Below are positions 2,226 to 63,646 of a DNA stretch of 64,000 bases, piece by piece. A model generated the notes under the pieces. That model was not told the origin of the DNA. It ran no database searches and worked only from the letters and a program-made list of their open reading frames with translations. The DNA is from Candidatus Omnitrophota bacterium. GTDB lineage: Bacteria; Omnitrophota; Gorgyraeia; Gygaellales; Profunditerraquicolaceae. The DNA lies in assembly GCA_041650835.1 (NCBI GenBank), contig JBAZKL010000001.1, positions 171,931-235,930 on the forward strand. The letters are read 5' to 3'. A program made the position numbers and the translations under genes. How positions within the stretch are numbered: position 1 is the first letter of the stretch; every line of letters begins with the position of its first letter.

Positions 2226-2440
2226 CCATCGTGTATTGAACCGGACCCGCCGATGCTGTATCCTTTACGCGGCCCTCTCCCTCCTGAGAACCCTGCTTTG
2301 TAAATTTAGATTGGAACTCGGGTACGAATATTATGGCAGATTGGTTCTATGCTACAATACAAACTGACAAAAGTCAAAATAATTCAGTTGCGCCGACAGT
2401 ATCCCCTCATAATAACCGCGGGCCCGCATGACGAACAGGC

Positions 2441-3760: not shown

Positions 3761-4791
3761 GGCCGCTTTCCTTCTTTCTTCAACGGCTCACCCGGGAGCT
3801 CACAGAGATAAGCAATGATCCCCGGGAGAACCAACACCCAGTACTGCGAAAGCTGAAATTTGGGCAGGCCGACCAAAAAGAATATCAACCACAGGGAAAA
3901 CCACTTGATCACCGCGCCAAGACCTGCCGCCCCCTGCCGGACCTTTTCGAACAGGTAAAACAAAAAGGTGACACACGCGGACAAATAGCACAGCGTTACC
4001 ACGGCCGCCGCCCGCGCGCCCATGACCGGCAAAAGCAGATAATAAACATTCGGACTGCGAAACATCCAGGGGCTATAGAAATGCGCGGCCACCATGGATC
4101 CGCTCACCCTTGGCCCGAACAGAGCCTGCGTAAATTCCCGCGGGCCGGTAATGAAAAACGGCAAGAAGATCAAAACAATTGTCCCGGTAAAACACCAAAA
4201 ACTCTTTTTATCAACGCGCCAGAAATAAACCGAAGAAATCAACGCGAGAGGAAAATAAAACTGTTTTACCGACACAGCGCATGCCAGCGCGACCGCTGCC
4301 GCCGCAGGCAGCTTATAGCGCTCATGCAACAAAAGCGCAAGGATTATCCCGCCGGCGGCAACAATATCGTTGGATGCCGTAAACCCGGAAGTTATTTCCC
4401 GCGTGAACGGATTGAGCAAAAAAACAGCCGCAAGGAACATTCCCCAGCGCTCATCCCTGGCGCAGGCCAGCAGGCCGAACGCGGTGAACAGCGCGAAAAT
4501 AAAATTCAGCCAGCGGATATCCGCCCAACTCGCCAACAGGCTATAGCCCAATGCTCCTGCGGGTGGATAACTGTAATGCAGTGAATAAGCCGAATCGGCG
4601 GTCTTAATGATAAACGGCGACGAATAAGGATTCATCCCCTTGATTATCTTGAGCGACGCCAAGCGGTTTATTTCGTATATGTCGCTGGTATGGCCGATCG
4701 GAAATTGCCGGATATTTGCGTGAGTCAGTCCGGCGAACACTGCCACGAACGCTATTGCGATAAGCCATTTTACTAAAGCCTGCTCTTTCAC
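3757..4791 (-). CDS. Polytopic integral membrane protein (possible GT-C-like glycosyltransferase or polymerase; function unknown)
   Basis: About 10 predicted TM helices across the whole length with no soluble domain. Operonic between the ATP-grasp gene and a hypothetical gene. Confidence 0.35.
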   Translation of the reverse strand: MKEQALVKWLIAIAFVAVFAGLTHANIRQFPIGHTSDIYEINRLASLKIIKGMNPYSSPFIIKTADSAYSLHYSYPPAGALGYSLLASWADIRWLNFIFALFTAFGLLACARDERWGMFLAAVFLLNPFTREITSGFTASNDIVAAGGIILALLLHERYKLPAAAAVALACAVSVKQFYFPLALISSVYFWRVDKKSFWCFTGTIVLIFLPFFITGPREFTQALFGPRVSGSMVAAHFYSPWMFRSPNVYYLLLPVMGARAAAVVTLCYLSACVTFLFYLFEKVRQGAAGLGAVIKWFSLWLIFFLVGLPKFQLSQYWVLVLPGIIAYLCELPGEPLKKEGKRP

Positions 4792-7519: not shown

Positions 7520-8506
7520 CTAATCCAGCAATCGAAGCAAAGAAACACACGACGCACAAATCTTTTCATCGCAGCGGCCCTGCCGCCGGAAACCAGTCCC
7601 CGGGAAACTCCCCGCGTCAAGATCATCCTTATGAACATCGCCTGCCGGCGGAAAATTACGGCAGCGATAGGCTTCGCCGTCCGCGTTCACAAATAACGAA
7701 CGCGCAGGAACAAAGCAACGGCCATCCACGCGCCCCGTTTCCAGGTAACGGATCAATCTTTGCGTCACCAAGCCGTTCCCCAGGGGATTGCGCCTGACGC
7801 TGCGCAGCGCTTGCCGTATCGCGCGCTTCTGCTCAGGGCTGAAAACAAAAGTACCGTTCTTTGAATTTTCTTCAAAATGCAGTGCATTGGTATATGACTT
7901 ATTATTTTCAACTATTTTAAAAACAAAACGCATACGCTTTTGCCGGAAATAGGCGGCAGCGCGTTCAATATCATCGTAGTTCCAGGGAGTAATGACAAAC
8001 TTCGCCTGTAAACCGGCCCAAGGGAATTTTTGTTGTATCAGAGCGATCGAATGTTGCGTTTGTCGCAACGCGCCCGGGGTCCGCGTCAAGCGGTCATGCG
8101 ATTGCAGCCCGTGAATGCTTAATTCCAGGACCAGACGCCGGTCGATCTTTATCCCCGTTAAAAAGTCACCTATCTCGCCGGTAAGCGTGCCGTTTGAAGA
8201 TATGAGCAGCGTCGATTTAGGAAACAATGACCGGGCATGAGAATAGAGCGAGCTCAGGTCCTTTCGCAAAAAAGGCTCGCCGCCGGTAAAGGTGATGTGT
8301 CGCGTTTTTTCGAGTGAGGGATGCTTGAGTACCCGCGTAACGGCATCACTTGATAGCTCATCACTACATTCGCCGTTTCTTTCCCATATATCGCACATGC
8401 GGCACTTCAAATTACACGCAGTGGTCAACGCAAGAGTAACCGAGGTAATTTCCAACCGGCCAAGATATGCGAGCAGGCAATTTTTAATCCGTTTCAATGT
8501 CTCCAT
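7520..8506 (-). CDS. Radical SAM protein with C-terminal SPASM/twitch-like Cys cluster
   Basis: CNLKCRMC near the N-terminus, GGEPFLRKD glycine-rich SAM motif, C-terminal CFVPARSLFVNADGEAYRC...CDEKICASC. Confidence 0.75.
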   Translation of the reverse strand: METLKRIKNCLLAYLGRLEITSVTLALTTACNLKCRMCDIWERNGECSDELSSDAVTRVLKHPSLEKTRHITFTGGEPFLRKDLSSLYSHARSLFPKSTLLISSNGTLTGEIGDFLTGIKIDRRLVLELSIHGLQSHDRLTRTPGALRQTQHSIALIQQKFPWAGLQAKFVITPWNYDDIERAAAYFRQKRMRFVFKIVENNKSYTNALHFEENSKNGTFVFSPEQKRAIRQALRSVRRNPLGNGLVTQRLIRYLETGRVDGRCFVPARSLFVNADGEAYRCRNFPPAGDVHKDDLDAGSFPGTGFRRQGRCDEKICASCVSLLRLLD

Positions 8507-8518
8507 ATTTTACGTCTT

Positions 8519-9577
8519 TCAACAGTCCGCGCGGGCACCGCAAAACCAGCTCCGTGGATTGCAGGCCTTCCTCATAACCCTTTGAAATACCGCTTCGTCT
8601 TGATAGTCGAAATATATCCGGGAAGCTATCCCGCTAAAAGCAAGCTCCGCGGCGCGCATCAACTTCCAGTACTTGCCTCCCTCAAAACAGTTATTGCGCA
8701 CGATCGCGCGGATATTCTCGTGCTTTTCCACGAACCGGCAGAATGCCCCCGTTTCAGCCGCCGTTTCCCGGCAGACGATAAAGATCAATTCCGTGATCTT
8801 ATCTTTTGGCCCCAGAAGCATCGTGATATTACGCATCACCCGTTCAAAATTATCCGCCCCCGTAACGGCACGATATGTTTGCCGGCTCATCCCGTAGAGA
8901 GAAACGGTAACGCCAATACCGCTTGAGATCCGGCCGAAGGTATCTAATAATATCCCGTTAGTAAGAATATGCAGCCTTTTCTCCGGGTAATGAGCGATCA
9001 CCCATTCAATGAATTCCCGCGTAACCGGCGCAAAAAGCGGTTCCCCTCCGGAAACAATGATATCCCGGGCCGCGGGTACCAGATCCTCCTTTATCTCTTT
9101 CATCAGCTCCTCGGATAACTGAGCGCATTGGCGGCGCCGGCGCATCCCGGACTGATAGCAAAAAGAACAATTATTGTTACAGGTAAAAGAAGGAACAACC
9201 ACGAGCATCGGCGGCGCGTAGTCAAGCTGAACCACTTTGTTCTTAAGAGCGTGCTTAACCGGATCATGGGCGGTGAAAGGGAAAAACGGGTCACGGCAAC
9301 AGTTCGCCCCGCGGCAAAAATCCCACGAACCACGGGAGATCATTGTCCTCTGAAACCGGAACTGCTTTGCATTCCAGGCTTCCCTGACCCCTTTTTTAAC
9401 GACCACCCGGTTCCCCGGGATAAACACATTGCTGAAACACGTGCTCAGTTGGGCTGCGCCCTGCTCCGCGGGAGAGATCTCTAACCGGTAATAGCCGCGG
9501 TGGCAGCGATACGGCTTTGTTTCGCCGGTATTTCCCCGAAAGATTGTCCGCGACACCAGTTGGAAATCCTTTATCAT
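8519..9577 (-). CDS. Radical SAM protein with ~125-aa Cys-rich N-terminal domain (paralog A)
   Basis: CNNNCSFC at ~aa 133, GGEP motif (VSGGEPLFAP). N-domain has C..YY...SP...STC...WNA..F..QR...G.W..C..G.C..PFF, which is conserved in the adjacent paralog. Confidence 0.7.
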   Translation of the reverse strand: MIKDFQLVSRTIFRGNTGETKPYRCHRGYYRLEISPAEQGAAQLSTCFSNVFIPGNRVVVKKGVREAWNAKQFRFQRTMISRGSWDFCRGANCCRDPFFPFTAHDPVKHALKNKVVQLDYAPPMLVVVPSFTCNNNCSFCYQSGMRRRRQCAQLSEELMKEIKEDLVPAARDIIVSGGEPLFAPVTREFIEWVIAHYPEKRLHILTNGILLDTFGRISSGIGVTVSLYGMSRQTYRAVTGADNFERVMRNITMLLGPKDKITELIFIVCRETAAETGAFCRFVEKHENIRAIVRNNCFEGGKYWKLMRAAELAFSGIASRIYFDYQDEAVFQRVMRKACNPRSWFCGARADC

Positions 9578-10695
9578 TCTGATCGGCCCTTTTGGGTAAC
9601 CTTAAGCGTTGGGTAAAAATACCGCGTGGTATAATACGGATCATACAACTTCTGTAACAACTTATCAGAAAAGGTTTCCCGGCAGTAACTGAATTTCAAA
9701 CGGGATGAAATACGGGCAAAGCGTGTTTCAAGTGAGCGCATCAAACCTTTGAATTTATTGCCGTCGGCGGAATTATTCCTTACGACGCCTTTCAAACGCC
9801 CCTCCGATTCGATGAATTGGCAAAATTGCATCGCCTCTGCCGCCGTAGTTCTCGAAACGATGAACGTCAAGTTTAAATTCTCACAGCCACAGGCAAGAAG
9901 TTGCGTAATAGCCCCCCAGGCGGCGTCAAAATAACCGGTCCCCGTTGTGTTCTTATATGTCTGCCGGCACATCCCGTAGAGAGAGATCACCGGGAATATA
10001 TTCGGACGGAGGACCTTCTCAATGCCAAATGCCTGCAAAAGCGTACCATTGGTAAGTATGGTGAGCTTTTTTTCCGGGAAATCCGTTATCATCCAGCGGA
10101 TAAGCTTCTGCGCGCACGCGGAGAAAAAAGGCTCGCCTCCGGAAACAACTATTTCCTGCGCTGACGGAACGACTTCTTCCCTCAGTTCTTTGAGGATGCC
10201 TTCGGAGAGCTGATAACAGCTGCCTCTATGGCCTTCTTTCCCATTATAGCAGAAAAAACAATTATTATTGCAAGCCAGAGACGGGATAATGTAAACTTTT
10301 TTGGCAAAATAACCCAGCTTTGTTCCACCGGTAAGGATGGCCTTGCCCACATCGGGATTATCGCCGATAAATTCTTTTTCCTGGAAAAAAGGATTAAAAA
10401 AACAATCTCCCGCTTTCCAGCAATAACTCCAATCGCCCTTACGCGTCAATGCCCTCTGGACCTGAAATTCCCGGGCGTTCCACGACGCGCAGATCCCGGC
10501 AGATACGATCCTGCGGTTCTTCGTCAGAAAAGCATTCTTGCAGCAGGTCGAAACCATCACCCGCCGCTCATCAACGGGAGACACCCACAGCGTATAATAG
10601 CAGGAATAACAATGCTTCAAATTCCCCATATCATTACTTAAACTCCCCATGCGATCAATAACAGTATTGTTATGATCATTCTTTCCCGTAAACAC
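9574..10695 (-). CDS. Radical SAM protein with Cys-rich N-terminal domain (paralog B, tandem duplicate)
   Basis: CNNNCFFC, VSGGEPFFSA. Colinear similarity to 8519..9577 throughout (ILTNG.LL..FG, SLYGM.RQTY, VRNN). 4-nt overlap with paralog A. Confidence 0.7.
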   Translation of the reverse strand: MFTGKNDHNNTVIDRMGSLSNDMGNLKHCYSCYYTLWVSPVDERRVMVSTCCKNAFLTKNRRIVSAGICASWNAREFQVQRALTRKGDWSYCWKAGDCFFNPFFQEKEFIGDNPDVGKAILTGGTKLGYFAKKVYIIPSLACNNNCFFCYNGKEGHRGSCYQLSEGILKELREEVVPSAQEIVVSGGEPFFSACAQKLIRWMITDFPEKKLTILTNGTLLQAFGIEKVLRPNIFPVISLYGMCRQTYKNTTGTGYFDAAWGAITQLLACGCENLNLTFIVSRTTAAEAMQFCQFIESEGRLKGVVRNNSADGNKFKGLMRSLETRFARISSRLKFSYCRETFSDKLLQKLYDPYYTTRYFYPTLKVTQKGRSE

Positions 10696-12112
10696 ATGCC
10701 GTTGAATATCCCTGTTTGAATCCTTTAAGCGGTTTCCAGCCGTATTTATCGATATATCGCTTCAGGTCCCGGGAATTATCCGACTGAGGCGAATAAACGA
10801 TTATATCCAGATCGTCATTATTGACCCGAAACCACGCATTCACCGCGTCAAGTGAGGGCTTATCAAAGAGTTCCCGCACGATAAGCGGCTTTTTCACATA
10901 CCCCAGTTCCGGATAACGTAAGGCCGAGGTTAACGGCCAGGACGCCGCGATGATCGCGCGCGGATAATTCCGCTCGACAAACCGCGCTGCCGCGGCGTGG
11001 ACATTCACGCAAGCTACATAGGACATATTCCGTTCCAGGCGGGCACCGCTGCCGAATGGTTCTTGCTCTTTCAACGGGAAAAAGCAAGATACCAGCAGGA
11101 AAACGACCGCGCCGGCCGCCAGCACGCGTCCGCCGTGCCGGGGAACGCCTTCTATGAGCATGACCGAGGCGGTAATAGCCAAGAAGGGATACAGCGGCAG
11201 CCAGTAACGGGGTATATTGATCTCGTATATGCTATAGAATAAGAACGATCCCGCGAGAAACGTCGCGCTCAGCAGGAGAAAACGAAGAGGATTGTCCTCC
11301 AACGGCTTTCGCGGCGAACGGATGGACCTCATGAGCAAAAAAACCATCGTTACCTGCGCCAACGGGCTGTCCGCAATGAACATTCCAGCCGTACGCGTCA
11401 ATACCCGCAGGTCCATTCCTGAAAGCGGGCGGACATGCCCGATATAGAACTCCCAAACCGCCTGCGTTATCCATAACGGCTTCAGGCAAACAAGCAAAAC
11501 GATGATCACCATGGTAAAGGAAAAAAAGATCCCATAGTATCTTTTACGCTGCTGCCGGTCGATCATCGCTAAGAGCGCCAATGCCAGGGCTATCATAACA
11601 GCGCCCAACACTCCGTTCTCCTTTGAAGCGGCTGCGGCTGTCAATGCGGCGATAAAAAGCCCCTTATTGCCGCTCATGAGCGCGTAAACCGTCAAAACCA
11701 TAAACAACGTCACGAGCATTTCGGGCAGCACCAGAACGCTTTGCGCGTAAAACAAAGGAGCGCACGCGAGTAATACCAGCGCGTAGACAGCGGTGTCCCT
11801 GGTAAAAAGAAGTGCCGCGAGTTTGTAGGTATAGAACAACGTTGCCGCCGCGCAGAGCATACTGAACAAATGGAAAAACGATATTGACATACCGAATATA
11901 CCGGCAATGCTTTTGAGTATAAAATGAAAAAGTGTTTTTCTTTCCGGAAAAGACTGCGCGGCAGCACCGACATAGGCAAGCTCATCCCAGTGCGGCAAAA
12001 CGTTTAATACAGGAACCTTGCTCAGAATGAATATCCCCAGGATATAGAATACCCCGGACGGATAAGTATCGCCGCCATTTTTGTCTTTGCTGGAATTATT
12101 CCGCGAACCCAT
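10676..12112 (-). CDS. GT-C fold membrane glycosyltransferase (GT39/GT83, PMT/ArnT-like)
   Basis: Polytopic N-terminal half with a first-loop DE motif (PHWDELAYV) and a C-terminal soluble domain. Start re-set to ATG at 12110..12112 (MGSRNN...), because the track ORF (to 12454) overlaps the upstream gene that stops at 12114. Confidence 0.6.
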   Translation of the reverse strand: MGSRNNSSKDKNGGDTYPSGVFYILGIFILSKVPVLNVLPHWDELAYVGAAAQSFPERKTLFHFILKSIAGIFGMSISFFHLFSMLCAAATLFYTYKLAALLFTRDTAVYALVLLACAPLFYAQSVLVLPEMLVTLFMVLTVYALMSGNKGLFIAALTAAAASKENGVLGAVMIALALALLAMIDRQQRKRYYGIFFSFTMVIIVLLVCLKPLWITQAVWEFYIGHVRPLSGMDLRVLTRTAGMFIADSPLAQVTMVFLLMRSIRSPRKPLEDNPLRFLLLSATFLAGSFLFYSIYEINIPRYWLPLYPFLAITASVMLIEGVPRHGGRVLAAGAVVFLLVSCFFPLKEQEPFGSGARLERNMSYVACVNVHAAAARFVERNYPRAIIAASWPLTSALRYPELGYVKKPLIVRELFDKPSLDAVNAWFRVNNDDLDIIVYSPQSDNSRDLKRYIDKYGWKPLKGFKQGYSTACVYGKE

Positions 12113-35869: not shown

Positions 35870-35966
35870 AACTCTCCGATAAAGAACACATCTAATTAAT
35901 TAACATGATAGTATATATAATTATATCACGGTAAGAAAAGTATGGAACAACTCTTTACGAAGGTTG

Positions 35967-36010
35967 GATTCCCGCTTATAGCTAATGAAGAGAACGGGAA
36001 TGACAAAAAA
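35967..36010. repeat. Repeat R1 copy a (upstream of lipoprotein gene 35243..35869)
   Basis: GGATTCCCGCTTATAGCTAATGAAGAGAACGGGAATGACAAAA, ~88% identical to 36829..36872. Followed by a second shared block AAGTCAAAAGG after a ~70-nt insertion. Confidence 0.6.
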
Positions 36011-36186
36011 AAGAATGGTAATGAAGAATAGCAGGAACGATACCCTTTCATGCCATCCCCGCGAAAACGGGGGTGACATGAAAAGTCAAAAGGAAAAATT
36101 TAACCCCAATAACACGAGAGGTCACTTATACGCTTTCTTTAAGCCTGCGATTGGGGTGATTTTCTGCATATCTATCCCTTCTTTCA

Positions 36187-36717
36187 TTATGAGCCGCCTG
36201 AATTTTTCATCTTGGAGAAGAAATTTTTGGCTTCCTCATCTATCTGCTGAGCGGTGAGATCCCGCGTATGAGTAGCGACCGACCAGGTATGTCCAAAGGG
36301 GTCCCGTAACTGCCCGACCCTATCCCCCCAAAACATCTCCTGCACCGGCATGATCTGGGTAGCGCCGGCCTTGAGCGCCCGGCTGAAAACTTCATCGGCA
36401 TTTTCTACATAGAGGTAAAAACTGGCGGTGTTCCCTTTCAATATAGACGGAGAAACGGAACAATTTTGCTCATGACCGGGATGAGGGTCACAATCATCGG
36501 CCAACATAAAGATAGAATCCCCGATCTTCAGTTCCGCGTGCATAAGCTTACCTCCCGGCTTATCCATGCGGCTTAATTCCTGGGCGGCAAAAGCGCTCTT
36601 GTAGAATCTTATCGCCTGCGCGCCGCCGCTGACCACCAGATGAGGTGTAAGTGTATGATACCCTTCAGGTATTGGTTTTAAATCTTGAGCCATATTTTCC
36701 TCCTTTGTTAAGACCAA
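36187..36717 (-). CDS. VOC-family protein (glyoxalase/bleomycin resistance/PhnB-like)
   Basis: Two betaalphabetabetabeta modules; HAELKIGDSIFMLAD and later H/E metal ligands typical of PhnB-like VOC proteins. Confidence 0.7.
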   Translation of the reverse strand: MVLTKEENMAQDLKPIPEGYHTLTPHLVVSGGAQAIRFYKSAFAAQELSRMDKPGGKLMHAELKIGDSIFMLADDCDPHPGHEQNCSVSPSILKGNTASFYLYVENADEVFSRALKAGATQIMPVQEMFWGDRVGQLRDPFGHTWSVATHTRDLTAQQIDEEAKNFFSKMKNSGGS

Positions 36718-36828
36718 TAGGTCCCTTGCCCTCTTTACTTATTTATATCACTATTAAGAACATTAACAATTGGCTATTTCCACGGATTATTGACTTTTTT
36801 CCACTCCAACGGGATTACGTCAAGGATT

Positions 36829-36872
36829 TGATCCCCGCTTATAGATCATTAAGAGACCGGGAATGACAAAAC
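36829..36872. repeat. Repeat R1 copy b (upstream of VOC gene 36187..36717)
   Basis: TGATCCCCGCTTATAGATCATTAAGAGACCGGGAATGACAAAA. Confidence 0.6.
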
Positions 36873-36914
36873 AAGTCAAAAGCCAAAAGGAAAAAGACCG
36901 CCTGCTTTGACTTG

Positions 36915-46858: not shown

Positions 46859-47332
46859 TTAGTTTTTTCCCTCACATTGTTCACATATACCGTAAAACTG
46901 TATCAGGTGATTAGTGATCTTAAACTTGTATTTCTGCCCCAATCCCTTCTCTGTTTGATTAAGCAGCTCGACTTCATCATCAATAAAGTCAGTGTAATCG
47001 ATGACCTTATTGCATTGCGTGCACACCAGGTGGTGATGATGATGCGCTCCCTTGGGGCCTTCGGCAAACTCATAGCGCGCCCTGCCATCGCCAAAATCAA
47101 GCTTATATACCATACCCAGGTTCGATAATACATCCAGCGTCCGGTAAACGGTAGTCAAACCTACCCCGGGGAACTTTGGATGGACCTTCATATAAATATC
47201 TTCGGCGCTCAGATGGCCTTCTTCCTTGGATAAAATATCAAGGATCGCCTCGCGGCCCAACGTAAGCCTATACCCGCAATCCCTGAACTTCCCATGCCAC
47301 CAGCCCTGCCCCTTACATTCACCTCTATGCAT
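46859..47332 (-). CDS. fur: Fur-family metalloregulator
   Basis: DNA-binding N-domain (…SAEDIY…TVYRTLDVL), C-terminal HHHHLVCTQC...CEQC metal sites. Start set at the second Met (47330..47332), because the promoter -10 lies at 47367..47372. Confidence 0.75.
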   Translation of the reverse strand: MHRGECKGQGWWHGKFRDCGYRLTLGREAILDILSKEEGHLSAEDIYMKVHPKFPGVGLTTVYRTLDVLSNLGMVYKLDFGDGRARYEFAEGPKGAHHHHHLVCTQCNKVIDYTDFIDDEVELLNQTEKGLGQKYKFKITNHLIQFYGICEQCEGKN

Positions 47333-47350: not shown

Positions 47351-47369
47351 AATGATTACCATTATTAAT
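47351..47369. promoter_or_regulatory. Fur-box-like palindrome (minus-strand reading TAATAATGGTAATCATT)
   Basis: 14 of 15 match to core of GATAATGATAATCATTATC. Sits immediately downstream of, and overlapping, the -10 of the fur promoter. Confidence 0.5.
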
Positions 47370-47395
47370 ATACATCACCGGACTGTTTTTGTCAA
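47367..47395 (-). promoter_or_regulatory. Sigma70-type promoter of fur: TTGACA-N17-TATATT
   Basis: Minus strand: TTGACA (47390..47395), 17-nt spacer, TATATT (47367..47372). About 35 nt upstream of the fur ATG at 47332. Confidence 0.5.
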
Positions 47396-47415: not shown

Positions 47416-47457
47416 CCCCTCACGTAAGCATTTGTAAATTCCTTCGCCTCCTGGACT
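47416..47457. repeat. Repeat R2 copy a (between cgs stop and fur promoter)
   Basis: CCCCTCACGTAAGCATTTGTAAATTCCTTCGCCTCCTGGACT, ~80% identical to 56600..56640, with a 22-nt identical core AAATTCCTTCGCCTCCTG. Confidence 0.6.
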
Positions 47458-47525
47458 GGATTTAACGGTAGATAGATATCAAAAGCCCACCTAAAAGAGA
47501 TAGACATCAGGCTTGTTTTCTATGT

Positions 47526-50500
47526 TCATCCGATCTTCACTTCCACTGAATGCTCTACCCGATCATCAATGAGCTGTACCGCCATTTCCTTCTGCGCGAC
47601 ACCATCCACCTCAATAGACGTCAAACGGCCTGACGGTCCCAAACACACAAATGTAATGTGATAAAAAGTCTCCCTGTATCGGTAATGCAGCTTCCAAGAA
47701 GTCCAGCCCGCGGGAAGACACGGCTCGAAATAGATCCTGTCCACTTTCAACCGAATCCCCAGTAAATACTTCACGATAAGCTGATACATCCAACCGGCGG
47801 ATCCGGTGTACCATGTCCATCCACCGCGTCCGGTGAGGCCGGCAGAGGCATACACATCCGCCGCCATCACGAACGGCTCCACCTTGTAAACAGCGCACTT
47901 ATCCGCAGTATCGCAATGACGCACCGGGTTGATCATATCGAACAACTCCCAGGCCCGTTTTTTATCACCCAATACCGCGAACGCGATCGCCGCCCAGATC
48001 GCAGCATGCGTGTACTGTCCCCCGTTCTCCCTCACTCCGGGGACATAGCCTTTGATGTATCCCGGGTTAGGAAAAGCCTTATCAAAAGGAGGATCGAACA
48101 ATCTCACGAGCGCGTGCTTCCTGTCGACAAGCTGCCGGTCCACCTGCTCCATGGCCTTTCGGGCTCTGTCCCCCTGAGCCGCGCCCGAAAGAACCGCCCA
48201 GGATTGCGGGATCGAATCGATCCGGCATTCGCTGTTCAAGGAAGAACCCAAAGGTTCCCCATTGTCAAAATAGGCCCGGCGATACCATTGCCCGTCCCAG
48301 CCATACTTTTCAATATTCTTGGAAAGCTTCTCTGACTCCTCAACACAGAATTCCGAAAAAACCTTATCCTCACGCTGAGCTGCCAGGGCCGCCATCGACT
48401 TAAGGACATCGAAAAGAAAAAAAGCAAGCCAAACGCTTTCGCCTTTTCCTTCGCGCCCGACCAGATTCATCCCGTCATTCCAGTCACCGCTTCCCATAAG
48501 AGGAAGGCCATGAACGCCGAACTGCAAACCTCTTTTCACGCTTAAAACACAATGTTCATAAAGTGTCCCGGTACGAGCGGAGATTCTCGGCATATCGTAG
48601 TAAGATTCTTCTCCCTGCTTGACCAGGGGCCCTTCCAGGAACCCAGCAATTTCATCAAGGATCCCTGTATCCCCGATATTTTCGACATACAGGCAGGTCA
48701 CCAACGGAAGCCATAAATAATCATCCGAACACAGACTACGGACCCCCCGGCCGGAAGGCGGATGCCACCAGTGCTGCACATCTCCCTCCACAAACTGGCG
48801 CGCGGCAAAGCTCAGCAATTGTTCCCGGACCATTTCCGGCTTCGAATGGAGGAGCGCCATCACATCCTGGAGCTGGTCCCGGAAGCCGAAAGCCCCGCCG
48901 GATTGATAAAAACCGCTTCGGCCCATGAGGCGTGAGCTTATGAGCTGATATTGCAGCCATCCGTTGACGAGAAAATTGATCGAGGCATCGGAGGTTTCCA
49001 CATACACAACGCCCAGGGTACGTTTCCAGTATTCCCACACCCTTTCAAGCTCCTGACGTGCCGCCTCGACACCGCCAAAACGCCGGACGAGGTCCCGCGC
49101 CTCGTCCATCGTTCTCCCGGATCCAAAAGTAAAAACTATCTCTTTCTGCTGACCATCCTCTATTTCAAACTTCACCTGCGTGGCAACGCACGGATCAATC
49201 CCCGCGCCCACTTTTCCGGAAAGCCTATCCCTTCGCATCACGGAAGGCGATCGCATAGTGCCGTTCCTTCCGATAAATTCGATCCGGTCCCCGGTCACGA
49301 ATCGCGCCGGTTCGCTCACATCCAAAAAAACAGCGCGGGCAGGGAATTCCTTGTTATAAGGATTACGGGCGAACAGGGCGCCGCTTTTAGGGTCGACCTC
49401 GGTAAGGATATGCATGTGGTATTTATCCCGAGAAGGCCCCATGACCAGCTCATAGTACGACGTCACGGACAGGCGCCTGCGGCGGCCGGAAATATTCCTG
49501 ATCTTCAGGGCAGAGAATTTGACTCGGTCCTCCAGGGAAACGAATACCGTTAACTCCGAAACAATCCCGTTTTCGACATGCTCAAAAACGCTGTACCCGA
49601 ATCCATGGCGCGAGGTGTAACCGGCCTCGCCCCGAGCGGGTAGCGGGGTCGGTGACCAAAATCTCCCGCTCTCCTCATCGCGAATATAGAGCGCCTCTCC
49701 CGAAGCGTCCGTAACAGGATCGTTCTTCCAAGGCGTTAAACGAAATTCATGCGCGTTCTCGCTCCAGGTAAAAGCGCTGCCGCTTTCGGAAACCACCGTG
49801 CCGAAATGCCGGTTCGCCAACACATTTACCCACGGAGCGGGAGTGGTCTTCGAGCGCGAGGTCATGATCACATATTCCCGACCATCCCCGGTAAACCCTC
49901 CCAAGCCATTAAAGTAAACCAGATGAGAGCGCTCTGCGGGATCCCGGGGCTCTTCTTCCGGATCATCTTTCCTGGTGGGAACAAATGGAAGAAAATGCGC
50001 CTTGGGCTGTGTCATATCCGTCAACTGCTCCGTCAGCGTACCCCCGCGGTCAGAAATAATGATCCGCGCGGCCGTTTGCATGAGGATCCGGTCCTCATCC
50101 GACATCTGATCGGCGCGCCTTAAAAAAATACCTCCGTTACGGCCGGCTTGTTCCTTGGTATTGGCAACGATCAACCCGCTGATCCTCTCACCCAGACTAT
50201 CACGATAAATAGAACTATCTTCATTCCATATAAGAAGATCGACCGCCAGTCCTTTCATCTGCCAATAGGCATGGGCTTGCACCATCTGCACGACGAGATC
50301 GATATTGTCCTGATTTTCGATGCGGACGAGGACGATCGGGAGGTCCCCCGAAATACTGTATCCCCAAAGATCGGGCTGGCCCCGGTTATTCCGCCGCAAA
50401 ATACTCGCGCTCGCCCGCCAGGCGGGATTGGCGTACACAATAGCGCTGGTCAGACGGCCGTAGAGCTGAGCGGCCGCCTCCGTCGCATTGATCTGTTGCA

Positions 50501-53500
50501 AAACAACCTGCCCGTGGGTCCACGCCAGGTTAAAAACGCGATCAGCCAGATTCCGGTCCCTGTATTTTTCCATGAGCGCCTGCGCGGCTTCCCGGCTCTC
50601 GCATATTCCGGTTACATAATCGATCACCGCCGATTCATCCGGCTCCAGTTCGATACGGCTGCGTATGGAAACGATTGGATCGAGCACAGAACCTTCGCTG
50701 TCCGAAAGACGTCCGCTCTCCATCATCGCCGCGGGATCAGCCACCGTGCGGCCTCGCCCGATGAATTTGCCGCGGTCAGTTTCATAGGAGGCGCCCTCGA
50801 CCGCATTCCCGTGAACGGCCATCAGATGCAGCATCAAGGGAAACGCTTCTTTGTCGGAGCGCGGCCGCCTCCGGCAAAGGATCGCCTGATGGGACCTGAT
50901 AATTTCGGTCTGGACGAACAGATTACTGAATGTCCGGTGGGCCTGGTCGCTTGCCGGATCATTCAAAACGACTTCCGCGTAACTGGTAATTTCTATGATA
51001 CGCCTATTGCGGGACTGGTTGGTGATCGTCACCCGGCGAAGCTCGATATCATCTTCCGGAGAAACCGCGATCTCGGTATGCGTCTCGATCTGATGGTCCC
51101 TGCGTTTAAATTCTACCCACGCCTGGGAAAACAAGGCTTCATAATACTTAGGGGTTTTTTGTGCCGGCTGATACGCCGAAGACCAGAACTTGCCGGACTC
51201 CGCGTCCCTGAGATAAATAAATGTCCCGTCATTATCCAACGCCGAATCCTCGCGCCAGCGCGTCACGGCGATATTTTGCCAGCGGCTGTACCCGCCTCCG
51301 GCGTTGCTGACCATCACATGGTAGCGGCCGTTGGAAAGCGGATGGACCTCCGGCACCGGAGTTTGAGGGGTTGTGAACACCCTCAAAAGGGTTTCCCTGT
51401 CCCCGAATTTCCTAAGCATTCCGGTTACTTCGAAATCGTAGAGGAAAGGCTCGATGGTGGGAACCCGCTCTTGAAGAAGAAGTTCGGCTGATTTAAACAT
51501 CGGCTCGGCAAGAAAACGTCTTTGCATAGGCCGGTCCAGAAGCACGCAGGCCAGAGATAACAAACTCATACCCTGATGATGCGCCATAAAAGATTTAACG
51601 ATCGCCCGGGTTTCATCCGGAGCAAGGCGCGCGGGCGTGTAATCAATCGCTTCATAGAAGCCATAGAGCCCTCCGGCTCCTTCATCGAATAAGCGTTCGA
51701 GATTTTCGCAAGCCTTCTCCGGCGCCACCATCAAAGCCAGCATCGAAGCATAGGGAGCCACGACAAGATCCTCGGCGAGGCCACGCTTGAAACCCATGTT
51801 CGGAATTCCGAACGACTGATACTGATACACCTTGGTCGCGTCGACCTTATTGTAACCGGACTCTGAGATCCCCCAGGGAATATTGTTCTCGGCCGCATAG
51901 CGGATCTGGCCGCTGACCGCGGCCTTGCAGGTCTCATCCAGCAGGCTCCCCGCATAGGTCGGCATCACCAGGAGCGGCATGAGATACTCAAACATCGACC
52001 CACCCCAGGAAACCAAAACAGGATCTCCTTCGCATTTTGCGATCATCCTGCCGAGCTTGAACCAATGATCCTGGGGCATTCTCCCCTGGGCGATGGCGAC
52101 AAAACTGCAAAACCTGGCCTCGGAGGCCAAAAGGTCATAACAACCCCGCTCCATCTTGTGCTCGCTGACATTGTATCCGATGGAAAGAAGATGGGTATTT
52201 TTATCATAGAGGAATTCATATTCTATACCGGAGATCTCGTTACAGCGCAGCACGATATAATCGATGGCTTTGATCCTTTCGGTGGAACGTGTCCCGGCAT
52301 TCTTGATCGTGTCACGAAGCTTCAAAAACCATTCGCGGACCTTTTTCGACTCATCATCTATGACAGGCATGGCCCTCAGGATCTCCTCGATAAGCGGGAC
52401 CAGCTTCTGCTCAAGCCTCGCTACTTCCCCAAGTATGGGGATCTCGTCCAAATACCGCAAAGCCTCCCTAAGCTGAACAAGCCGTTCCTGCTGATGTTCA
52501 TCCCCCCCATCCCACATCCCCGGTATTTCCGGCGCGAGCAAGATCCAGGGAGCGATAAAAGACATATCCTCCAGAAAGTCGTAATACTGCCGCTCGAAGG
52601 CGCGGGCCCATTTTTTGCTTTGCTCAGAATGCTTATGGTCCAGACCCGTTAAAACCTTTGCAATATCCGTGGAAAGTTGGCGTAAAAACGTATAGATCTC
52701 CGAAAGACGCGCGGGGGACAACGCGCACTTTTCCTGAAATTGCTTGATCTTTTCGGGAAATTGCGCCAGGGATCCGGCGACATCACCCTTGCAGCTTTTC
52801 TCAAGCTCGGCCACACTTTGACGCAGTATCTCCAGGGTATCTCTCAGCCCGTCAAATATCTTCGCGGAGACGATCTTCTGAAGGTTCAATTCCGCAAGCC
52901 CCGAACGCAGGACCAGCAAATGGCCAACCAAGTTCCCGCTATCCACCGATGAGATATACAGAGGCGTCAGGGGCTTAAGCGTCTGGGTGTCGTACCAATT
53001 GTAAAAATGCCCCCTGAATCTTTCCATAAGATTCAGAGTATCAAATGTTTTTTCTGTCCTGTTAAACATCATCCCCATGGAAATATATCCGAAATCATAG
53101 GCGGTCAAATTTGCAAGAAGCGACAGGCCGATATTCGTCGGCGAAGTCCTATGGGCCAGAACGCTGACAGGCTCTTCCTGAAAATTGTCAGGCGGCAGCC
53201 AATGGTCATTCTCGGTAACAAAATTCTCAAAGAACGCCCAGGTCATCCGGGCAAGCTTCCTTAAGAAAAGTACCTGCGACTGGGAAAGCATGATCTTCCG
53301 GGGAGAGGAAGGCTGACTGATCATATACGCCGCCGCGGGAGAAACGAACCACAGGCTTAAAAAGATCAAAGCCAATCCGTCGAAGCGCGGGAATAGCCCC
53401 GAAAAAAGAACCATCAGCACAACGGCGGCAACCGGCGTAAACCACATGCTCCTGTAGTAGCCTGAAATATGGGTCGATGAGGAAACTTCCGATTCAAGGG

Positions 53501-56315
53501 AAGTATTCCAATTCAACAAACGTTTCCTTGACACTGACATTCTCCACAACGTCCGCGCGATCGCGTCCAGGCAATAAAAAGCCTCGTGCAGCAAAAAAAC
53601 AAACGAGAAGAAAAACCGGAGCGTGTTCTTCTTAAGCGAGGATAACACCAATTCAAAATGGGCCTTGAAGGTCAAGTGCTCCGATTTCCTCACCGCCTCC
53701 GCTAAAGACATCGGCACAAGGGGAAAACCAAGCAGAGCGATGACGAAAGCCGACCATATCCAAGAGGGCTGATAAAACATCCAACCTGATAAAAGCAGTA
53801 TCACTGTCGATAAAGGAACGAGGCTGCGCCTCAAGTTATCGGCGATCTTCCATTGGGACAGCCAGGAGATCGGATTCTTGACTTTTGAGCCATTGGCCCC
53901 GGGTACCGAAGAGAACAGCCAGGGGGAGATCTGCCAGTCCCCGCAAACCCAGCGATGCCTGCGCCTTGAGTCATTAAGATACCCCGGAGGATACCCCTCG
54001 TAAAATTGGATATCGGTCACAAGCCCTGACCGGGCGTAACATCCTTCCAAAAGATCATGGCTCAGTATACGATTTTCCGGAAAACGGCCTTCCATGGACC
54101 GTTCGAAGGCAGCCACATCATAAAGCCCTTTCCCGATAAAAGACCCCTCGAAGAAAAAATCCTGGTACACATCGGAGACCGCTTTGGTATAAGGATCAAT
54201 CCCGGTATCGCCTCCGAAGATCCTCACGAACAAAGAAGGATTTTCTCCCGGATAGCTGGATTCTACCCTGGGCTGGAGGATCCCGTAGCCGGAAATAACA
54301 CGTTGTTTTTTTTCATCATAAACCGGCCGGTTAAGGGGATGCGCGATGACCCCCACCAGATCCCGGGCCGCGTTGCGGGACATCCGGGTATCCGCGTCCA
54401 GCGTAATGACATATTTGACCTCATGAAGCCTCTGGAGATTGCCGATAATCACGCTAAAACGGCCCTCGCCTTTTCCGCGAAGGAAAGCGTTCAGATCACC
54501 CAGCTTACCCCGCTTGCGTTCGTACCCCATCCACACCTTTTCTCTTTCATTCCATAGGCGGGGCCTGTGGAAAAGAGAGAAAACTTGATCTTTCTGCCGC
54601 CGGTATTTGTAATTCAACTGCTCGATCCCGTTTATGACCTGCGCCAGAAGCGCTTCATCCTCCGCCATCGTCTCCTGTTGCGCATCGCAAAAATCCGTCA
54701 AAAGCGCGAAATCCGTATTCGCGTCAATATTCGCCAAATACCGGACCTCCAATCCTTCCAGAAGCGAGTCAATTGTCCGCGCGTCTCTGATCATACAGGG
54801 AACCACGGCCAGTGTATGAGCATAGGCGGGAATTCCTTCTGAAAAGTCCATCCGGGGAAGATTTTGGGGCCGCACGAGCATCATGGAAAACCAATTCACC
54901 AGCGAAACTGCCGTCTGGCTTGACGTAAGCATAAGCGATACCCCGAATAAAACAAGCCACGGCCGGCTCAAGATCACCGCCGGCCGCAACCAATACAAAA
55001 CGCCGATGGTAAAAACAAGAGTCACAAAAACAATAGAACCGAAAAATAAAAAAGACGACCAATAAGTTTTTTTTGCCTGCAGATACTGGCTCAGTGGCAA
55101 ACGCAGGCCCAATTCGCGGCAAAAAAACGCCAATCCCCGGTCGAGAAGGTAAAAACCTACATGCGCCGTGACGTGAGCGGGGCCTTTTTCCGTTTTCGCT
55201 TTCTTCGCCAGCAGGATGGCGCGCGCCGCAACCTCTTCCTCCGAGATCCTGCTTCTCAAGGAAAGTTTCTCAATGACATGCCGGTAGCGGTCGCGGGTGG
55301 CGAAAGACATCAGGGGATAATCCCCCGAGGGATCCTGACCTAAAACTTTTTCCATAAAGCTCAGGGCTTCGACAAAATCATGCCAATCGGTACCCCCCAG
55401 AAGACGCAGGCTCCCGATCGTATTCGCGATCGAAACCTGGTCAGCCGCCTGTTTCTGGCCGGTCGCCCGGATCATCCTATCAAGGGTCTCCCCTTGCTCC
55501 GAAAGCTTCTTTTCCAGCCAGGTAAAAGGAAGATTAAGCGCCTGACTCTGGCTATGCAAACGCCGGGTGAATTCCGCGACAAAAACATCGGAAAGCGGAG
55601 GGTTACTCCTGGACATCGCCGCTATTTCAAAGATCACCCCGTCGGAATCTTTGGCTGAGACCTCCAGGATCCGCGTCGCCCAATAATTCGCCTTATCTCT
55701 TTCTGTTTGCGCTACGATCAACCGGGAGGAAACGCGCCTTAAATTCTCAATAAGCGCGAGCCTTAACATGATAGGAATAGCCCAGAGTTCGCCGAGCTTC
55801 AAGTGGCTGACGCTTTGATAGGCAGTGACAAACTCCGTAAGCCCCTGGTTATCCAGCCGTCCGTCGCCGTGAGAAACAAGTTCCATGGCAAGCTCATACA
55901 CGCGAGGATAACCGACAAACGGCCCCGAAGAAAGATGGGGTAATTCACGAATGTAATTCTCCGGAAGATATTTCTGGGCGAGCCGTATCTGCTCCTCAAT
56001 AAGGTAATAGTTATCCAGAAGCCATTCTCCGGCAGGGGAGATCTTTCGTTTGGATTTACCGGTCACATTAAGGAGTTCATGGACCTCGGCAAGGACCTTT
56101 TCATTCTGCTTCAGCCGCAGCAATAGCCTGTTGCGTCCCTTTTTGTAGCTGACCAGGCGGCCATGGGCCAGGCTTTTTGCGTGCGCCTTGAACTGCTCAA
56201 TGTTAAAAAGCTCGGCGCGCAGAGGCTGTTCCTCGGCAATCCTGTTCCTATCCAGAAAATCGCCAAGACGCATTTTAAAAGGCAGCATATAGTCTTGAAA
56301 AGGCTTCTGCGGCAA
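47526..56315 (-). CDS. cgs: Cyclic beta-1,2-glucan synthase (Cgs/NdvB/ChvB-like; GT84 glycosyltransferase + GH94 phosphorylase domains)
   Basis: 2929 aa. N-terminal region, then TM segments, a GT domain (LDADT, ILQPRV), more TM helices, and a C-terminal GH94 cellobiose-phosphorylase-like catalytic domain (FGFRDQLQDVMALL…WYTGSAGW). Size and order match Cgs/NdvB (~2830-2870 aa). Confidence 0.85.
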   Translation of the reverse strand: MPQKPFQDYMLPFKMRLGDFLDRNRIAEEQPLRAELFNIEQFKAHAKSLAHGRLVSYKKGRNRLLLRLKQNEKVLAEVHELLNVTGKSKRKISPAGEWLLDNYYLIEEQIRLAQKYLPENYIRELPHLSSGPFVGYPRVYELAMELVSHGDGRLDNQGLTEFVTAYQSVSHLKLGELWAIPIMLRLALIENLRRVSSRLIVAQTERDKANYWATRILEVSAKDSDGVIFEIAAMSRSNPPLSDVFVAEFTRRLHSQSQALNLPFTWLEKKLSEQGETLDRMIRATGQKQAADQVSIANTIGSLRLLGGTDWHDFVEALSFMEKVLGQDPSGDYPLMSFATRDRYRHVIEKLSLRSRISEEEVAARAILLAKKAKTEKGPAHVTAHVGFYLLDRGLAFFCRELGLRLPLSQYLQAKKTYWSSFLFFGSIVFVTLVFTIGVLYWLRPAVILSRPWLVLFGVSLMLTSSQTAVSLVNWFSMMLVRPQNLPRMDFSEGIPAYAHTLAVVPCMIRDARTIDSLLEGLEVRYLANIDANTDFALLTDFCDAQQETMAEDEALLAQVINGIEQLNYKYRRQKDQVFSLFHRPRLWNEREKVWMGYERKRGKLGDLNAFLRGKGEGRFSVIIGNLQRLHEVKYVITLDADTRMSRNAARDLVGVIAHPLNRPVYDEKKQRVISGYGILQPRVESSYPGENPSLFVRIFGGDTGIDPYTKAVSDVYQDFFFEGSFIGKGLYDVAAFERSMEGRFPENRILSHDLLEGCYARSGLVTDIQFYEGYPPGYLNDSRRRHRWVCGDWQISPWLFSSVPGANGSKVKNPISWLSQWKIADNLRRSLVPLSTVILLLSGWMFYQPSWIWSAFVIALLGFPLVPMSLAEAVRKSEHLTFKAHFELVLSSLKKNTLRFFFSFVFLLHEAFYCLDAIARTLWRMSVSRKRLLNWNTSLESEVSSSTHISGYYRSMWFTPVAAVVLMVLFSGLFPRFDGLALIFLSLWFVSPAAAYMISQPSSPRKIMLSQSQVLFLRKLARMTWAFFENFVTENDHWLPPDNFQEEPVSVLAHRTSPTNIGLSLLANLTAYDFGYISMGMMFNRTEKTFDTLNLMERFRGHFYNWYDTQTLKPLTPLYISSVDSGNLVGHLLVLRSGLAELNLQKIVSAKIFDGLRDTLEILRQSVAELEKSCKGDVAGSLAQFPEKIKQFQEKCALSPARLSEIYTFLRQLSTDIAKVLTGLDHKHSEQSKKWARAFERQYYDFLEDMSFIAPWILLAPEIPGMWDGGDEHQQERLVQLREALRYLDEIPILGEVARLEQKLVPLIEEILRAMPVIDDESKKVREWFLKLRDTIKNAGTRSTERIKAIDYIVLRCNEISGIEYEFLYDKNTHLLSIGYNVSEHKMERGCYDLLASEARFCSFVAIAQGRMPQDHWFKLGRMIAKCEGDPVLVSWGGSMFEYLMPLLVMPTYAGSLLDETCKAAVSGQIRYAAENNIPWGISESGYNKVDATKVYQYQSFGIPNMGFKRGLAEDLVVAPYASMLALMVAPEKACENLERLFDEGAGGLYGFYEAIDYTPARLAPDETRAIVKSFMAHHQGMSLLSLACVLLDRPMQRRFLAEPMFKSAELLLQERVPTIEPFLYDFEVTGMLRKFGDRETLLRVFTTPQTPVPEVHPLSNGRYHVMVSNAGGGYSRWQNIAVTRWREDSALDNDGTFIYLRDAESGKFWSSAYQPAQKTPKYYEALFSQAWVEFKRRDHQIETHTEIAVSPEDDIELRRVTITNQSRNRRIIEITSYAEVVLNDPASDQAHRTFSNLFVQTEIIRSHQAILCRRRPRSDKEAFPLMLHLMAVHGNAVEGASYETDRGKFIGRGRTVADPAAMMESGRLSDSEGSVLDPIVSIRSRIELEPDESAVIDYVTGICESREAAQALMEKYRDRNLADRVFNLAWTHGQVVLQQINATEAAAQLYGRLTSAIVYANPAWRASASILRRNNRGQPDLWGYSISGDLPIVLVRIENQDNIDLVVQMVQAHAYWQMKGLAVDLLIWNEDSSIYRDSLGERISGLIVANTKEQAGRNGGIFLRRADQMSDEDRILMQTAARIIISDRGGTLTEQLTDMTQPKAHFLPFVPTRKDDPEEEPRDPAERSHLVYFNGLGGFTGDGREYVIMTSRSKTTPAPWVNVLANRHFGTVVSESGSAFTWSENAHEFRLTPWKNDPVTDASGEALYIRDEESGRFWSPTPLPARGEAGYTSRHGFGYSVFEHVENGIVSELTVFVSLEDRVKFSALKIRNISGRRRRLSVTSYYELVMGPSRDKYHMHILTEVDPKSGALFARNPYNKEFPARAVFLDVSEPARFVTGDRIEFIGRNGTMRSPSVMRRDRLSGKVGAGIDPCVATQVKFEIEDGQQKEIVFTFGSGRTMDEARDLVRRFGGVEAARQELERVWEYWKRTLGVVYVETSDASINFLVNGWLQYQLISSRLMGRSGFYQSGGAFGFRDQLQDVMALLHSKPEMVREQLLSFAARQFVEGDVQHWWHPPSGRGVRSLCSDDYLWLPLVTCLYVENIGDTGILDEIAGFLEGPLVKQGEESYYDMPRISARTGTLYEHCVLSVKRGLQFGVHGLPLMGSGDWNDGMNLVGREGKGESVWLAFFLFDVLKSMAALAAQREDKVFSEFCVEESEKLSKNIEKYGWDGQWYRRAYFDNGEPLGSSLNSECRIDSIPQSWAVLSGAAQGDRARKAMEQVDRQLVDRKHALVRLFDPPFDKAFPNPGYIKGYVPGVRENGGQYTHAAIWAAIAFAVLGDKKRAWELFDMINPVRHCDTADKCAVYKVEPFVMAADVYASAGLTGRGGWTWYTGSAGWMYQLIVKYLLGIRLKVDRIYFEPCLPAGWTSWKLHYRYRETFYHITFVCLGPSGRLTSIEVDGVAQKEMAVQLIDDRVEHSVEVKIG

Positions 56316-56599
56316 AGCGGGCTCCTGTTCCTATTCGGTAAGCGAGACGTTGGAAAGATAAAATTTTTAGGATGATGAATGCTTCAAAGATTATTATACA
56401 CCTCAAAGCGAAATTTCTGCTATACAAAATCTCCGAGCTGATCTTATATACCGGCCCCCTCACTCTTACGAACATCGCTACTTCAAAAGGCCCATAACCG
56501 CTGGCGCGACCATAGACCTCCCTTGGTTATATTATACCAAAAGAGTTACCTAATTACTGAGCATTAACAATGCTTCTCATCCTAAGCAGTCTATATTTG

Positions 56600-56640
56600 C
56601 CCCTCGCCTAAACACTTGCAAATTCCTTCGCCTCCTGACT
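56600..56640. repeat. Repeat R2 copy b (far upstream of cgs start, just after the stop of 56653..57591)
   Basis: CCCCTCGCCTAAACACTTGCAAATTCCTTCGCCTCCTGACT. Confidence 0.6.
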
Positions 56641-56652
56641 AAGTCAGTCGGC

Positions 56653-60286: not shown

Positions 60287-60314
60287 ATTATAGGAAGGGC
60301 AAGAATAAAATCAA
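60287..60314 (-). promoter_or_regulatory. Sigma70-type promoter TTGATT-N16-TATAAT upstream of the yeaQ-like gene
   Basis: Minus strand: TTGATT (60309..60314), 16-nt spacer, TATAAT (60287..60292). The -35 is embedded in repeat R3. Confidence 0.4.
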
Positions 60315-60332
60315 TTGTACGCGGGTATACGC
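60308..60332. repeat. Repeat R3 copy a (abuts stop of pqiC-like gene; contains -35 of the yeaQ-like promoter)
   Basis: AAATCAATTGTACGCGGGTATACGCC. Confidence 0.6.
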
Positions 60333-63597: not shown

Positions 63598-63626
63598 ATT
63601 ATTGCAAGATACAGGAATTAAATCAA
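63598..63626 (-). promoter_or_regulatory. Possible promoter TTGATT-N17-AATAAT upstream of the mla operon (would give a leaderless or near-leaderless mlaE)
   Basis: Same -35/upstream sequence as the yeaQ-like promoter. The -10 lies only 5 nt from the ATG. Confidence 0.3.
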
Positions 63627-63646
63627 TTGTACGCAGGTATAACCGC
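63620..63646. repeat. Repeat R3 copy b (between response-regulator stop and mlaE start)
   Basis: AAATCAATTGTACGCAGGTATAACCGC. Confidence 0.6.

Follow-up and report, generated by a model that had tools for sequence, protein, structure and literature searches.

Two copies of R2 enclose the cgs transcription unit

We analyzed a 64-kb stretch of DNA (the window) from a Candidatus Omnitrophota metagenome-assembled genome (MAG; source contig of 868 kb), in which a gene for a cyclic beta-1,2-glucan synthase-like protein (cgs) stands between two copies of an intergenic repeat, here named R2. Together with a third copy in another genome, these sequences form a real, rare and structured intergenic repeat family with three known members. 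The two window copies, B upstream of cgs and A downstream of it, are tentatively interpreted as the junctions of a repeat-flanked cgs insertion. All genes here lie on the minus strand, along which the order is a DUF748/AsmA-like gene, copy B, a 285-nt leader, cgs, a terminator, copy A, a 20-nt spacer, the fur promoter and fur. Exactly one transcription unit thus lies between the repeats: B begins immediately past the upstream stop codon, and A stands between the cgs terminator and the fur promoter.

Copies A and B are direct repeats with 87% identity over 38 nt in a repeat search (47416-47453 against 56600-56637). Identical bases occupy 33 of the 38 positions, and an ACT triplet matches as well past a 1-nt indel. 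The longest unbroken identity is an 18-nt core, AAATTCCTTCGCCTCCTG, at 47436-47453 and 56620-56637. A self-BLAST search of the whole window ranked this pair third among the non-self matches (E=4.5e-5), so the similarity exceeds chance. A 7-kb locus of another genome, L020, which is unrelated to the window, also matches copy A (E=1.2e-7) and copy B (E=1.6e-18), and the related sequence in it is referred to below as copy C. All five substitutions between A and B lie outside the core (p about 0.03), which is identical in A, B and C. Within the 38 nt, B and C differ by three substitutions, A and C by four plus an indel, and A and B by five plus an indel. The three copies are roughly equidistant, and therefore neither A nor B is a recent duplicate of the other. 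Beyond the repeat, the A and B flanks are dissimilar downstream (p=0.45), and upstream their similarity is only marginal (p=0.04).

A sequence-only reading of this DNA had reported the pair at 47416..47457 and 56600..56640, and both sequences are present there. It gave the identical core as 22 nt, a length reached only when a T/C mismatch at the fourth position is ignored. Its distances were accurate: A lies 68 nt from the cgs stop codon and B 285 nt from the cgs start, and A was correctly placed just upstream of the fur -35 hexamer (47395-47390), with 20 nt between them. That reading also described a repeat of about 41 nt directly after the preceding stop codon; the position is right, whereas the unit at B is longer and runs from 56652 to 56597. 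The coordinates of R2 and of the surrounding features are listed in Table 1.

Table 1. Positions of the R2 copies, their substructures and neighbouring features in the window
Feature	Position	Strand	Remarks
R2 copy B, full-length, ~56 nt	56597..56652	-	94.6% over 56 nt to L020:553-608; nhmmer E=2e-19; cmsearch 95.8 bits
R2 copy A, partial, central ~38-nt segment S only	47416..47457	-	91.7% over 36 nt to L020; nhmmer E=9e-14
Invariant 18-nt core in copy B, minus strand CAGGAGGCGAAGGAATTT	56620..56637	-	Identical in A, B and C
Invariant 18-nt core in copy A	47436..47453	-	Identical in A, B and C
Hairpin H1, GCC-GA-CTGAC-TTA-GTCAG-GA-GGC	56630..56652	-	Fold; in B and C, absent from A
Hairpin H2, TTTGC-N17-GCAAA	56596..56622	-	Fold
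DUF748/AsmA-like gene, 312 aa	56653..57591	-	TAG stop at 56655-56653
Extended -10-like TGgTATAAT, alternative candidate cgs promoter	56531..56539	-	By eye; about 100 nt downstream of the B core
cgs, cyclic beta-1,2-glucan synthase-like, 2929 aa	47526..56315	-	Called gene; TTG start 56315, stop 47526-47528
Terminator-like hairpin and T run, 3' of cgs, just before A	47485..47505	-	Terminator scan
fur promoter TTGACA-17-TATATT, 11/12	47367..47395	-	Promoter scan; 20 nt downstream of A
fur, 157 aa as called	46859..47332	-	Pfam FUR 3e-32

Anatomy of the element

R2, a rare intergenic module restricted to this lineage, spans about 56 nt and is composed of a palindrome hairpin, a purine-rich 18-nt core and a further hairpin. 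On the minus strand the element reads AGTC(C)AGGAGGCGAAGGAATTTRCAARTGYTTASGYGAGGGG, and copies B and C have the same layout, in which hairpin H1 is followed by the purine tract GGAGGCGAAGGAA and then by hairpin H2. The first base of the element at B is the base right after the DUF748 TAG stop codon. H1 holds a 13-bp perfect palindrome, CTGACTTAGTCAG (56635-56647), which is unique in the window, and it contains tandem G.A mismatches bounded by G-C pairs. Two AGGA motifs, spaced 9 nt apart, lie in the purine tract. H2 overlaps a weak promoter-like sequence, TTGCAA (56621-56616)-17 nt-AAATAT (56598-56593), which matches the consensus at 7/12 positions and is not called by the consensus scan. By eye, both B and C have TTGCAA, exactly 17 nt and then an AT-rich hexamer whose second base is A and whose sixth is T.

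Copy A has neither the left half of the palindrome nor the stem that closes H2, and the left arm GCCGACTGACTT, shared by B and C, is missing from it. Compared with shuffled sequences, B and C fold well (z=-3.3 and z=-3.4), whereas A folds no better than its shuffles (z=+1.1). Outside A and B, further occurrences of the palindrome half-sites and of the purine tract in the window do not exceed chance. Neither terminal inverted repeats nor a target-site duplication are seen at the ends of B and C (GCCGAC... and ...GCAAATAT), whose flanking sequences have nothing in common. R2 contains no intrinsic terminator, H1 and H2 being without a T run and the cgs terminator lying upstream of A, outside the repeat. 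No conserved small open reading frame (ORF) was found in the element: the ATT- or TTG-initiated mini-ORFs of the minus strand are not conserved beyond the repeat, and on the plus strand a shared TAA closes frames of only 6-24 codons.

Distribution of the motif and surroundings of copy C

An 18-mer scan of one genome per GTDB species (185,579 species) returned 61 matches. Comparison of their flanks identified 60 of these as chance and only L020 as homologous. A 20-mer scan of the JGI metagenomes gave eight matches, all of them chance. No further copy was found with nhmmer or with a covariance model built on B and C in 205 kb of DNA, comprising the window, L020 and about 140 kb of related Omnitrophota sequence. 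The 18-mer and 20-mer scans, as exact-word searches, miss diverged homologues, just as a 15-mer of another repeat of the window, D1, missed the D1 homologues in relatives. Rfam gave no match at the gathering score in the window, and with E allowed up to 10 the surroundings of B, A and C yielded nothing but noise. The sequence-only reading had named occurrence at many loci, irrespective of context, as the observation that would make R2 a generic dispersed repeat. The motif was very low-copy in all searches, and in the DNA they covered R2 is not such a repeat.

Copy C (L020:553-608) lies in a different Omnitrophota MAG (JBAZTA010000002.1) and aligns with window positions 56652-56597; the rest of the 7-kb L020 locus contains nothing resembling the window. 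It is located 75 nt past a tRNA-His gene, beyond that gene's own terminator. Downstream of it are a small hairpin, a strong terminator on the plus strand (645-675) and then a convergent gene. Further along the locus are a LexA-like repressor, a Dam methylase, a PD-(D/E)XK nuclease, a second methylase and a kinase. These surroundings are a tRNA-adjacent variable island of the restriction-modification type.

The plus strand of L020:615-683 has a 7-bp hairpin and a 13-bp terminator with a T run. As tRNA-His has its own terminator at about 488-520, the extra one argues for a small independent transcription unit starting at or in C, and L020:615-683 is a candidate small RNA unit of ~65 nt (or ~140 nt).

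Collinearity with relatives ends at copy B

The DUF748 gene was found in seven loci of relatives, at 77-87% protein identity and in five distinct arrangements. It is followed there by a GtrA-like gene (twice), a mechanosensitive channel gene (twice), a YdbH-like gene, or TPR/GDSL genes (two near-identical contigs). None of these seven loci contains cgs, fur or the R2 motif, which is also absent from the 3' flanks of their DUF748 genes. The upstream neighbourhood is partly kept in closer relatives (the Mla operon in L071 and BON in L079). Since L071 and L083 have the order DUF748 then GtrA-like in common, the cgs arrangement is derived. The DUF748 C-terminus reads ...LDKLTLR* in the window against ...LDKL(Q)* in relatives, and this rewritten end indicates that shared ancestry stops 12 nt before B.

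A search with the C-terminal 830 aa of the cgs product found homologues with 80-86% identity in three Omnitrophota contigs. Their downstream neighbours are CBS, DUF134 and HSP20, so that the three contigs present three contexts, and neither fur nor the R2 motif occurs in any of them. In L078, the cgs gene (21-3761) has a GC content of 0.50 against 0.35-0.40 around it; cgs is thus GC-richer than its surroundings in two Omnitrophota genomes. In all three contigs of relatives the gene is cut by the contig start, which may reflect strain variation or assembly trouble.

Another conserved element lies just 3' of DUF748 in relatives, AATAGTGCTTATTGA...GAGGCAAATGTCTATAG, also found as AATAGTGCTTATTGAGCCTYGCGCTT..GAGGCAAATGTCTATAG (L074:~11185-11235, L075:~3240-3290, L081:~9790-9840 and partly L071:10945-10960). 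It persists despite the differing next gene, and its hairpin shows structure-preserving changes between L074 and L075 (C-G to U.G, G.U to G-C, and a C/C mismatch to C-G). This element may be a small RNA or a regulatory element. It was considered as an R2 homologue and rejected, its similarity to B not being significant (best p 0.04-0.07 over 18 tests).

Tentative interpretation as junctions of an insertion

If B and A are junctions, the cgs transcription unit, consisting of leader, gene and terminator, would have entered the DUF748-fur interval by recombination at a site of the R2 type. Either a site-specific exchange or a Campbell-type crossover through short homology, inside the identical 18-nt core, might have been responsible, and this core would then be the crossover or protein-recognition segment. 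Direct repeats would be left at both junctions, as in an att-flanked cargo segment that lacks a recombinase, and the same repeats could still loop cgs out. Unlike the repeat, its anatomy and the synteny break, which are observed, the placement of cgs here by recombination at R2 is what we infer to be most likely.

Several observations favour this tentative assignment. The full-length copy B stands exactly where collinearity with relatives stops, and the partial copy A stands at the far end of the lineage-specific segment. The cgs gene has a different context in each relative seen, and its GC content is above that of its immediate flanks both here and in L078 (0.531 against 0.43-0.47 in the immediate neighbours in the window). 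Copy C is 94.6% identical to B in non-homologous surroundings, at the edge of an island. The confinement of substitutions to positions outside the core would fit a crossover or recognition core between diverged arms. Likewise, a left arm found in the left copy B and missing from the right copy A would be expected of two junctions.

Other observations weigh against an insertion. The GC content at third codon positions (GC3) of cgs, 0.618, is inside the window range (mean 0.530, standard deviation 0.058), and the best homologues of cgs (86%) are as similar as those of the neighbouring gene (87%). Taken together, these values do not indicate a recent foreign origin of cgs. No recombinase, integrase or transposase Pfam domain is present in the sizeable ORFs of the window, and no recombinase is found among the called genes within about 10 kb on either side of the segment. 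The R2 motif had no match in viral contigs (three scans) or in phages and plasmids (distant BLAST). B and C may share a few bases on their right flank, CAA-ATAT, which a strict attL would not. Neither a single-copy empty site nor a DUF748-fur adjacency was seen in the loci of relatives examined, which cover the downstream sides of DUF748 and of cgs and the closest of which has 87% protein identity. The sequence-only reading had suggested a comparison with relatives lacking cgs, in which one copy at an empty site would support insertion. It yielded the loci without cgs, but these are also without the motif and fur, and no single-copy empty site was among them. The proposal of that reading that A and B are attL/attR-like scars is partly supported, in an indirect way, by the synteny break, the variable context of cgs, its GC content and the island-border copy C; the observations that would decide it, an empty site in a relative and an integrase or transposase in the window, were looked for and not found. 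Finally, flanking by itself does not imply insertion, because D1 flanks an operon as a shared promoter module.

An extension of this interpretation appears rather unlikely to us, namely that R2 is a new Omnitrophota recombination site of ~56 nt, used in trans by an unlinked recombinase. Such a site would move single-gene cargo, would seed tRNA-adjacent defence islands and might possess its own outward promoter.

Other repeat pairs of the window

D1 and D3, the other two best intergenic repeat pairs, each flank one transcription unit too. D1 is a 30-nt direct repeat, TATACCYGCGTACAATTGATTTWATTCYTG, on the minus strand at 60300-60329 and 63612-63641, where it flanks the Mla operon. It carries a -35-like TTGATT and, 16-17 nt further on, TATAAT or AATAAT, and it has homologues at corresponding positions in L071 (2720-2786 and 7609-7676) and L083 (5051-5096). 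D1 looks like a conserved promoter/operator module of an envelope-stress gene set, beside a GerE-type response regulator. D3 is the best non-self repeat in the window (35955-36011 and 36815-36874; 57-60 nt, 83%, E=2.5e-8). It flanks a glyoxalase-family gene (36187-36717) and contains the hairpin ATTCCCG-N22-CGGGAAT, and a hairpin similar to it, CACCCCCG...CGGGGATG, is found at about 36050-36080.

Further direct repeats of the window (8873-8902/9955-9984 and 8268-8289/10124-10145) are among several explained by three tandem radical-SAM/SPASM-type paralogues (328, 352 and 373 aa) at 7520-10695, inside a polysaccharide-biosynthesis region.

Alternative explanations

The insertion is not ranked much above a regulatory role, because in a co-oriented, gene-dense genome shared promoter modules, too, appear as direct repeats on either side of a unit. 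Nearly as likely, and similarly doubtful, is that R2 is a promoter-proximal or cis-regulatory module common to consecutive transcription units. The sequence-only reading had offered an explanation of this sort, an upstream activator site shared by fur and cgs, which may apply. The palindrome and the purine core would then be protein-binding sites upstream of a weak sigma-70-like TTGCAA-17-AAWATT. Copy B would be the promoter or a regulator of cgs, acting across a ~270-nt leader, and C would drive a ~65-nt RNA ending at the terminator, whereas A would be a promoter-dead copy that may still bind a factor upstream of the fur promoter. In agreement with this, A and B are each upstream of a transcription unit in the same orientation, the TTGCAA-17-AT-rich hexamer pattern occurs in both B and C, and the 18-nt core is invariant in all three copies, A included. 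The second plus-strand terminator after C (645-675) implies a small independent transcription unit, and D1 provides a precedent in the same window as a promoter module flanking the Mla operon. However, a consensus scan for sigma-70 promoters, with -35 and -10 hexamers 16-18 nt apart and at least 9/12 matches, called none in B or C (7/12 and 8/12), and A has no -10 at all. Conservation peaks upstream and in the presumed spacer, not in the hexamers, and the core shows no obvious dyad. The distances also differ, being about -84 to the fur promoter and about -104 to the extended -10 of the cgs leader. The palindrome is missing from A, and no protein-coding gene lies downstream of C, which is followed by a terminator and a convergent gene. 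Moreover, cgs and fur have no evident functional link, and no further R2 copy was found in the 205 kb of window and related DNA in which D1 homologues were. Other promoter classes and structures were considered and rejected. A sigma-54 promoter must have its GG and GC elements 10 nt apart, and in B and C the AGGCGA...TTGCA arrangement gives 11, while A has TTTAC for TTGC. A sigma-28 promoter, an extracytoplasmic function (ECF) promoter, an attC site, a signal recognition particle (SRP) RNA and a group II intron domain V failed on spacing or sequence, as judged by eye.

It is unlikely that A and B are independent insertions or relics of a small non-autonomous selfish element (MITE-, REP- or PATE-like) that flank cgs by coincidence. 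Such an element would account for the hairpin and palindrome anatomy, for 95% identity between species in unrelated contexts and for the patchy occurrence among relatives. It would also suit the position of all three copies just 3' of a co-oriented gene, with A and C 20-33 nt past a terminator. Against it stand the copy number (two per 64 kb, and one exact-core copy in the other genome), the absence of the motif from all other GTDB representatives and from the JGI metagenomes, and the lack of terminal inverted repeats, of a target-site duplication and of a nearby transposase. With roughly 40-55 intergenic gaps in the window, random placement in adjacent ones would be expected in only about 4-5% of cases. 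We regard as improbable a structured RNA with two hairpins and an exposed GGA- or Shine-Dalgarno-like purine tract, acting in a 3' untranslated region or a 5' leader, for example as a protein- or ribosome-binding decoy. B and C form the same two hairpins (z about -3.3), with tandem G.A mismatches flanked by G-C pairs in H1 and the two AGGA motifs 9 nt apart in the purine tract. Two substitutions unique to A (G to A and C to T) would keep a 3-bp inner stem (GUG/CGC to AUG/CGU). Nevertheless, this inner stem is broken in B, A does not fold, Rfam offers no match even at E up to 10, and three sequences give no usable covariation. No small ORF is conserved either, the candidate frames diverging or lacking a start codon. 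Highly improbable, and already disfavoured by the similarity searches, is that the resemblance arose by chance or was left over neutrally from a local duplication and serves no purpose today. The short, partial nature of A and the weak similarity of the upstream flanks (p about 0.04) are compatible with it. In contrast, the self-BLAST match and the matches to a third sequence from another genome (E=1e-7 and 1e-18) exceed what chance would give, neither A nor B has the other as its nearest relative, and an 18-nt core would not be expected to survive unchanged in different species if the sequence were a neutral relic.

Genes adjoining the repeats

The cgs product matches the Pfam GH94 supersandwich (1.5e-171), GH94 catalytic (5.5e-122) and Glycoamylase families, whereas its GT2 match is below the cutoff (21.9 bits against 27). 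Two TATAAT boxes are present in the 285-nt cgs leader (56316-56600), one within TGgTATAAT at 56539-56531 and one in GTGTATAAT near 56400. The former, an extended -10-like sequence, was not called by the promoter scan, which needs a -35. The leader also contains an 11-codon mini-ORF after AAGGGAGG. The 5' region of cgs is thus unusually long, and it is possibly regulatory.

For fur, the first in-frame ATG, which is the start of the mechanical ORF (47362), falls within a Fur-box-like sequence, and the called start is at 47332. An exact look-up of the protein from the called start recovered the source contig and no other. The Fur-box-like sequence, AATAATGGTAATCATTTCC, lies right after the -10 of the fur promoter and matches 15 of 19 positions, counted by eye, of the classical 19-bp consensus. 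This suggests autoregulation of fur.

Significance and comparison with known elements

R2 is probably either an att-like junction repeat or a portable promoter module, and it calls for no new category. If the copies are junctions, a very large envelope-polysaccharide gene would be a movable and excisable unit in an uncultured, possibly host-associated phylum, and through the 56-nt site one could search for further units of this kind and for their recombinase. If they are regulatory, R2 would be the first cis-element linking the control of cgs and fur in Omnitrophota, together with a candidate small RNA locus. With three copies the practical value is limited, and the family represents a lead rather than a system.

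Among known repeats, Correia/CREE, REP/BIME, ERIC and RUP/BOX elements occur in tens to hundreds of copies per genome, and most of them have terminal inverted repeats. R2 resembles these families as a short structured intergenic element that could alter the transcription of neighbours or serve recombination. It differs from them in having two copies per 64 kb, no terminal inverted repeats or target-site duplication, and near absence from public data. With the shared promoter module D1 it has in common direct repeats of 30-60 nt in consecutive intergenic regions between co-oriented genes, with a -35-like hexamer and upstream sequence. In contrast to R2, D1 is kept at orthologous positions in relatives and has good -10 boxes, whereas R2 was not found there, has weak -10 candidates and includes one copy without a downstream gene.

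Cis-mobilizable elements (CIMEs) are the att-flanked, integrase-less elements known from the biology of integrative and conjugative elements (ICE) and integrative and mobilizable elements (IME). Compared with these elements and with attL/attR sites in general, R2 has no cognate integrase, parent element or empty site found, its cargo here is a single housekeeping-like gene of 8.8 kb, and it is not part of a tRNA gene. It is like them in forming imperfect direct repeats of tens of base pairs, with an identical core, around a cargo that is absent or elsewhere in relatives, in enclosing a segment without a recombinase, and in having one related copy, C, beside a tRNA gene at the border of a variable island.

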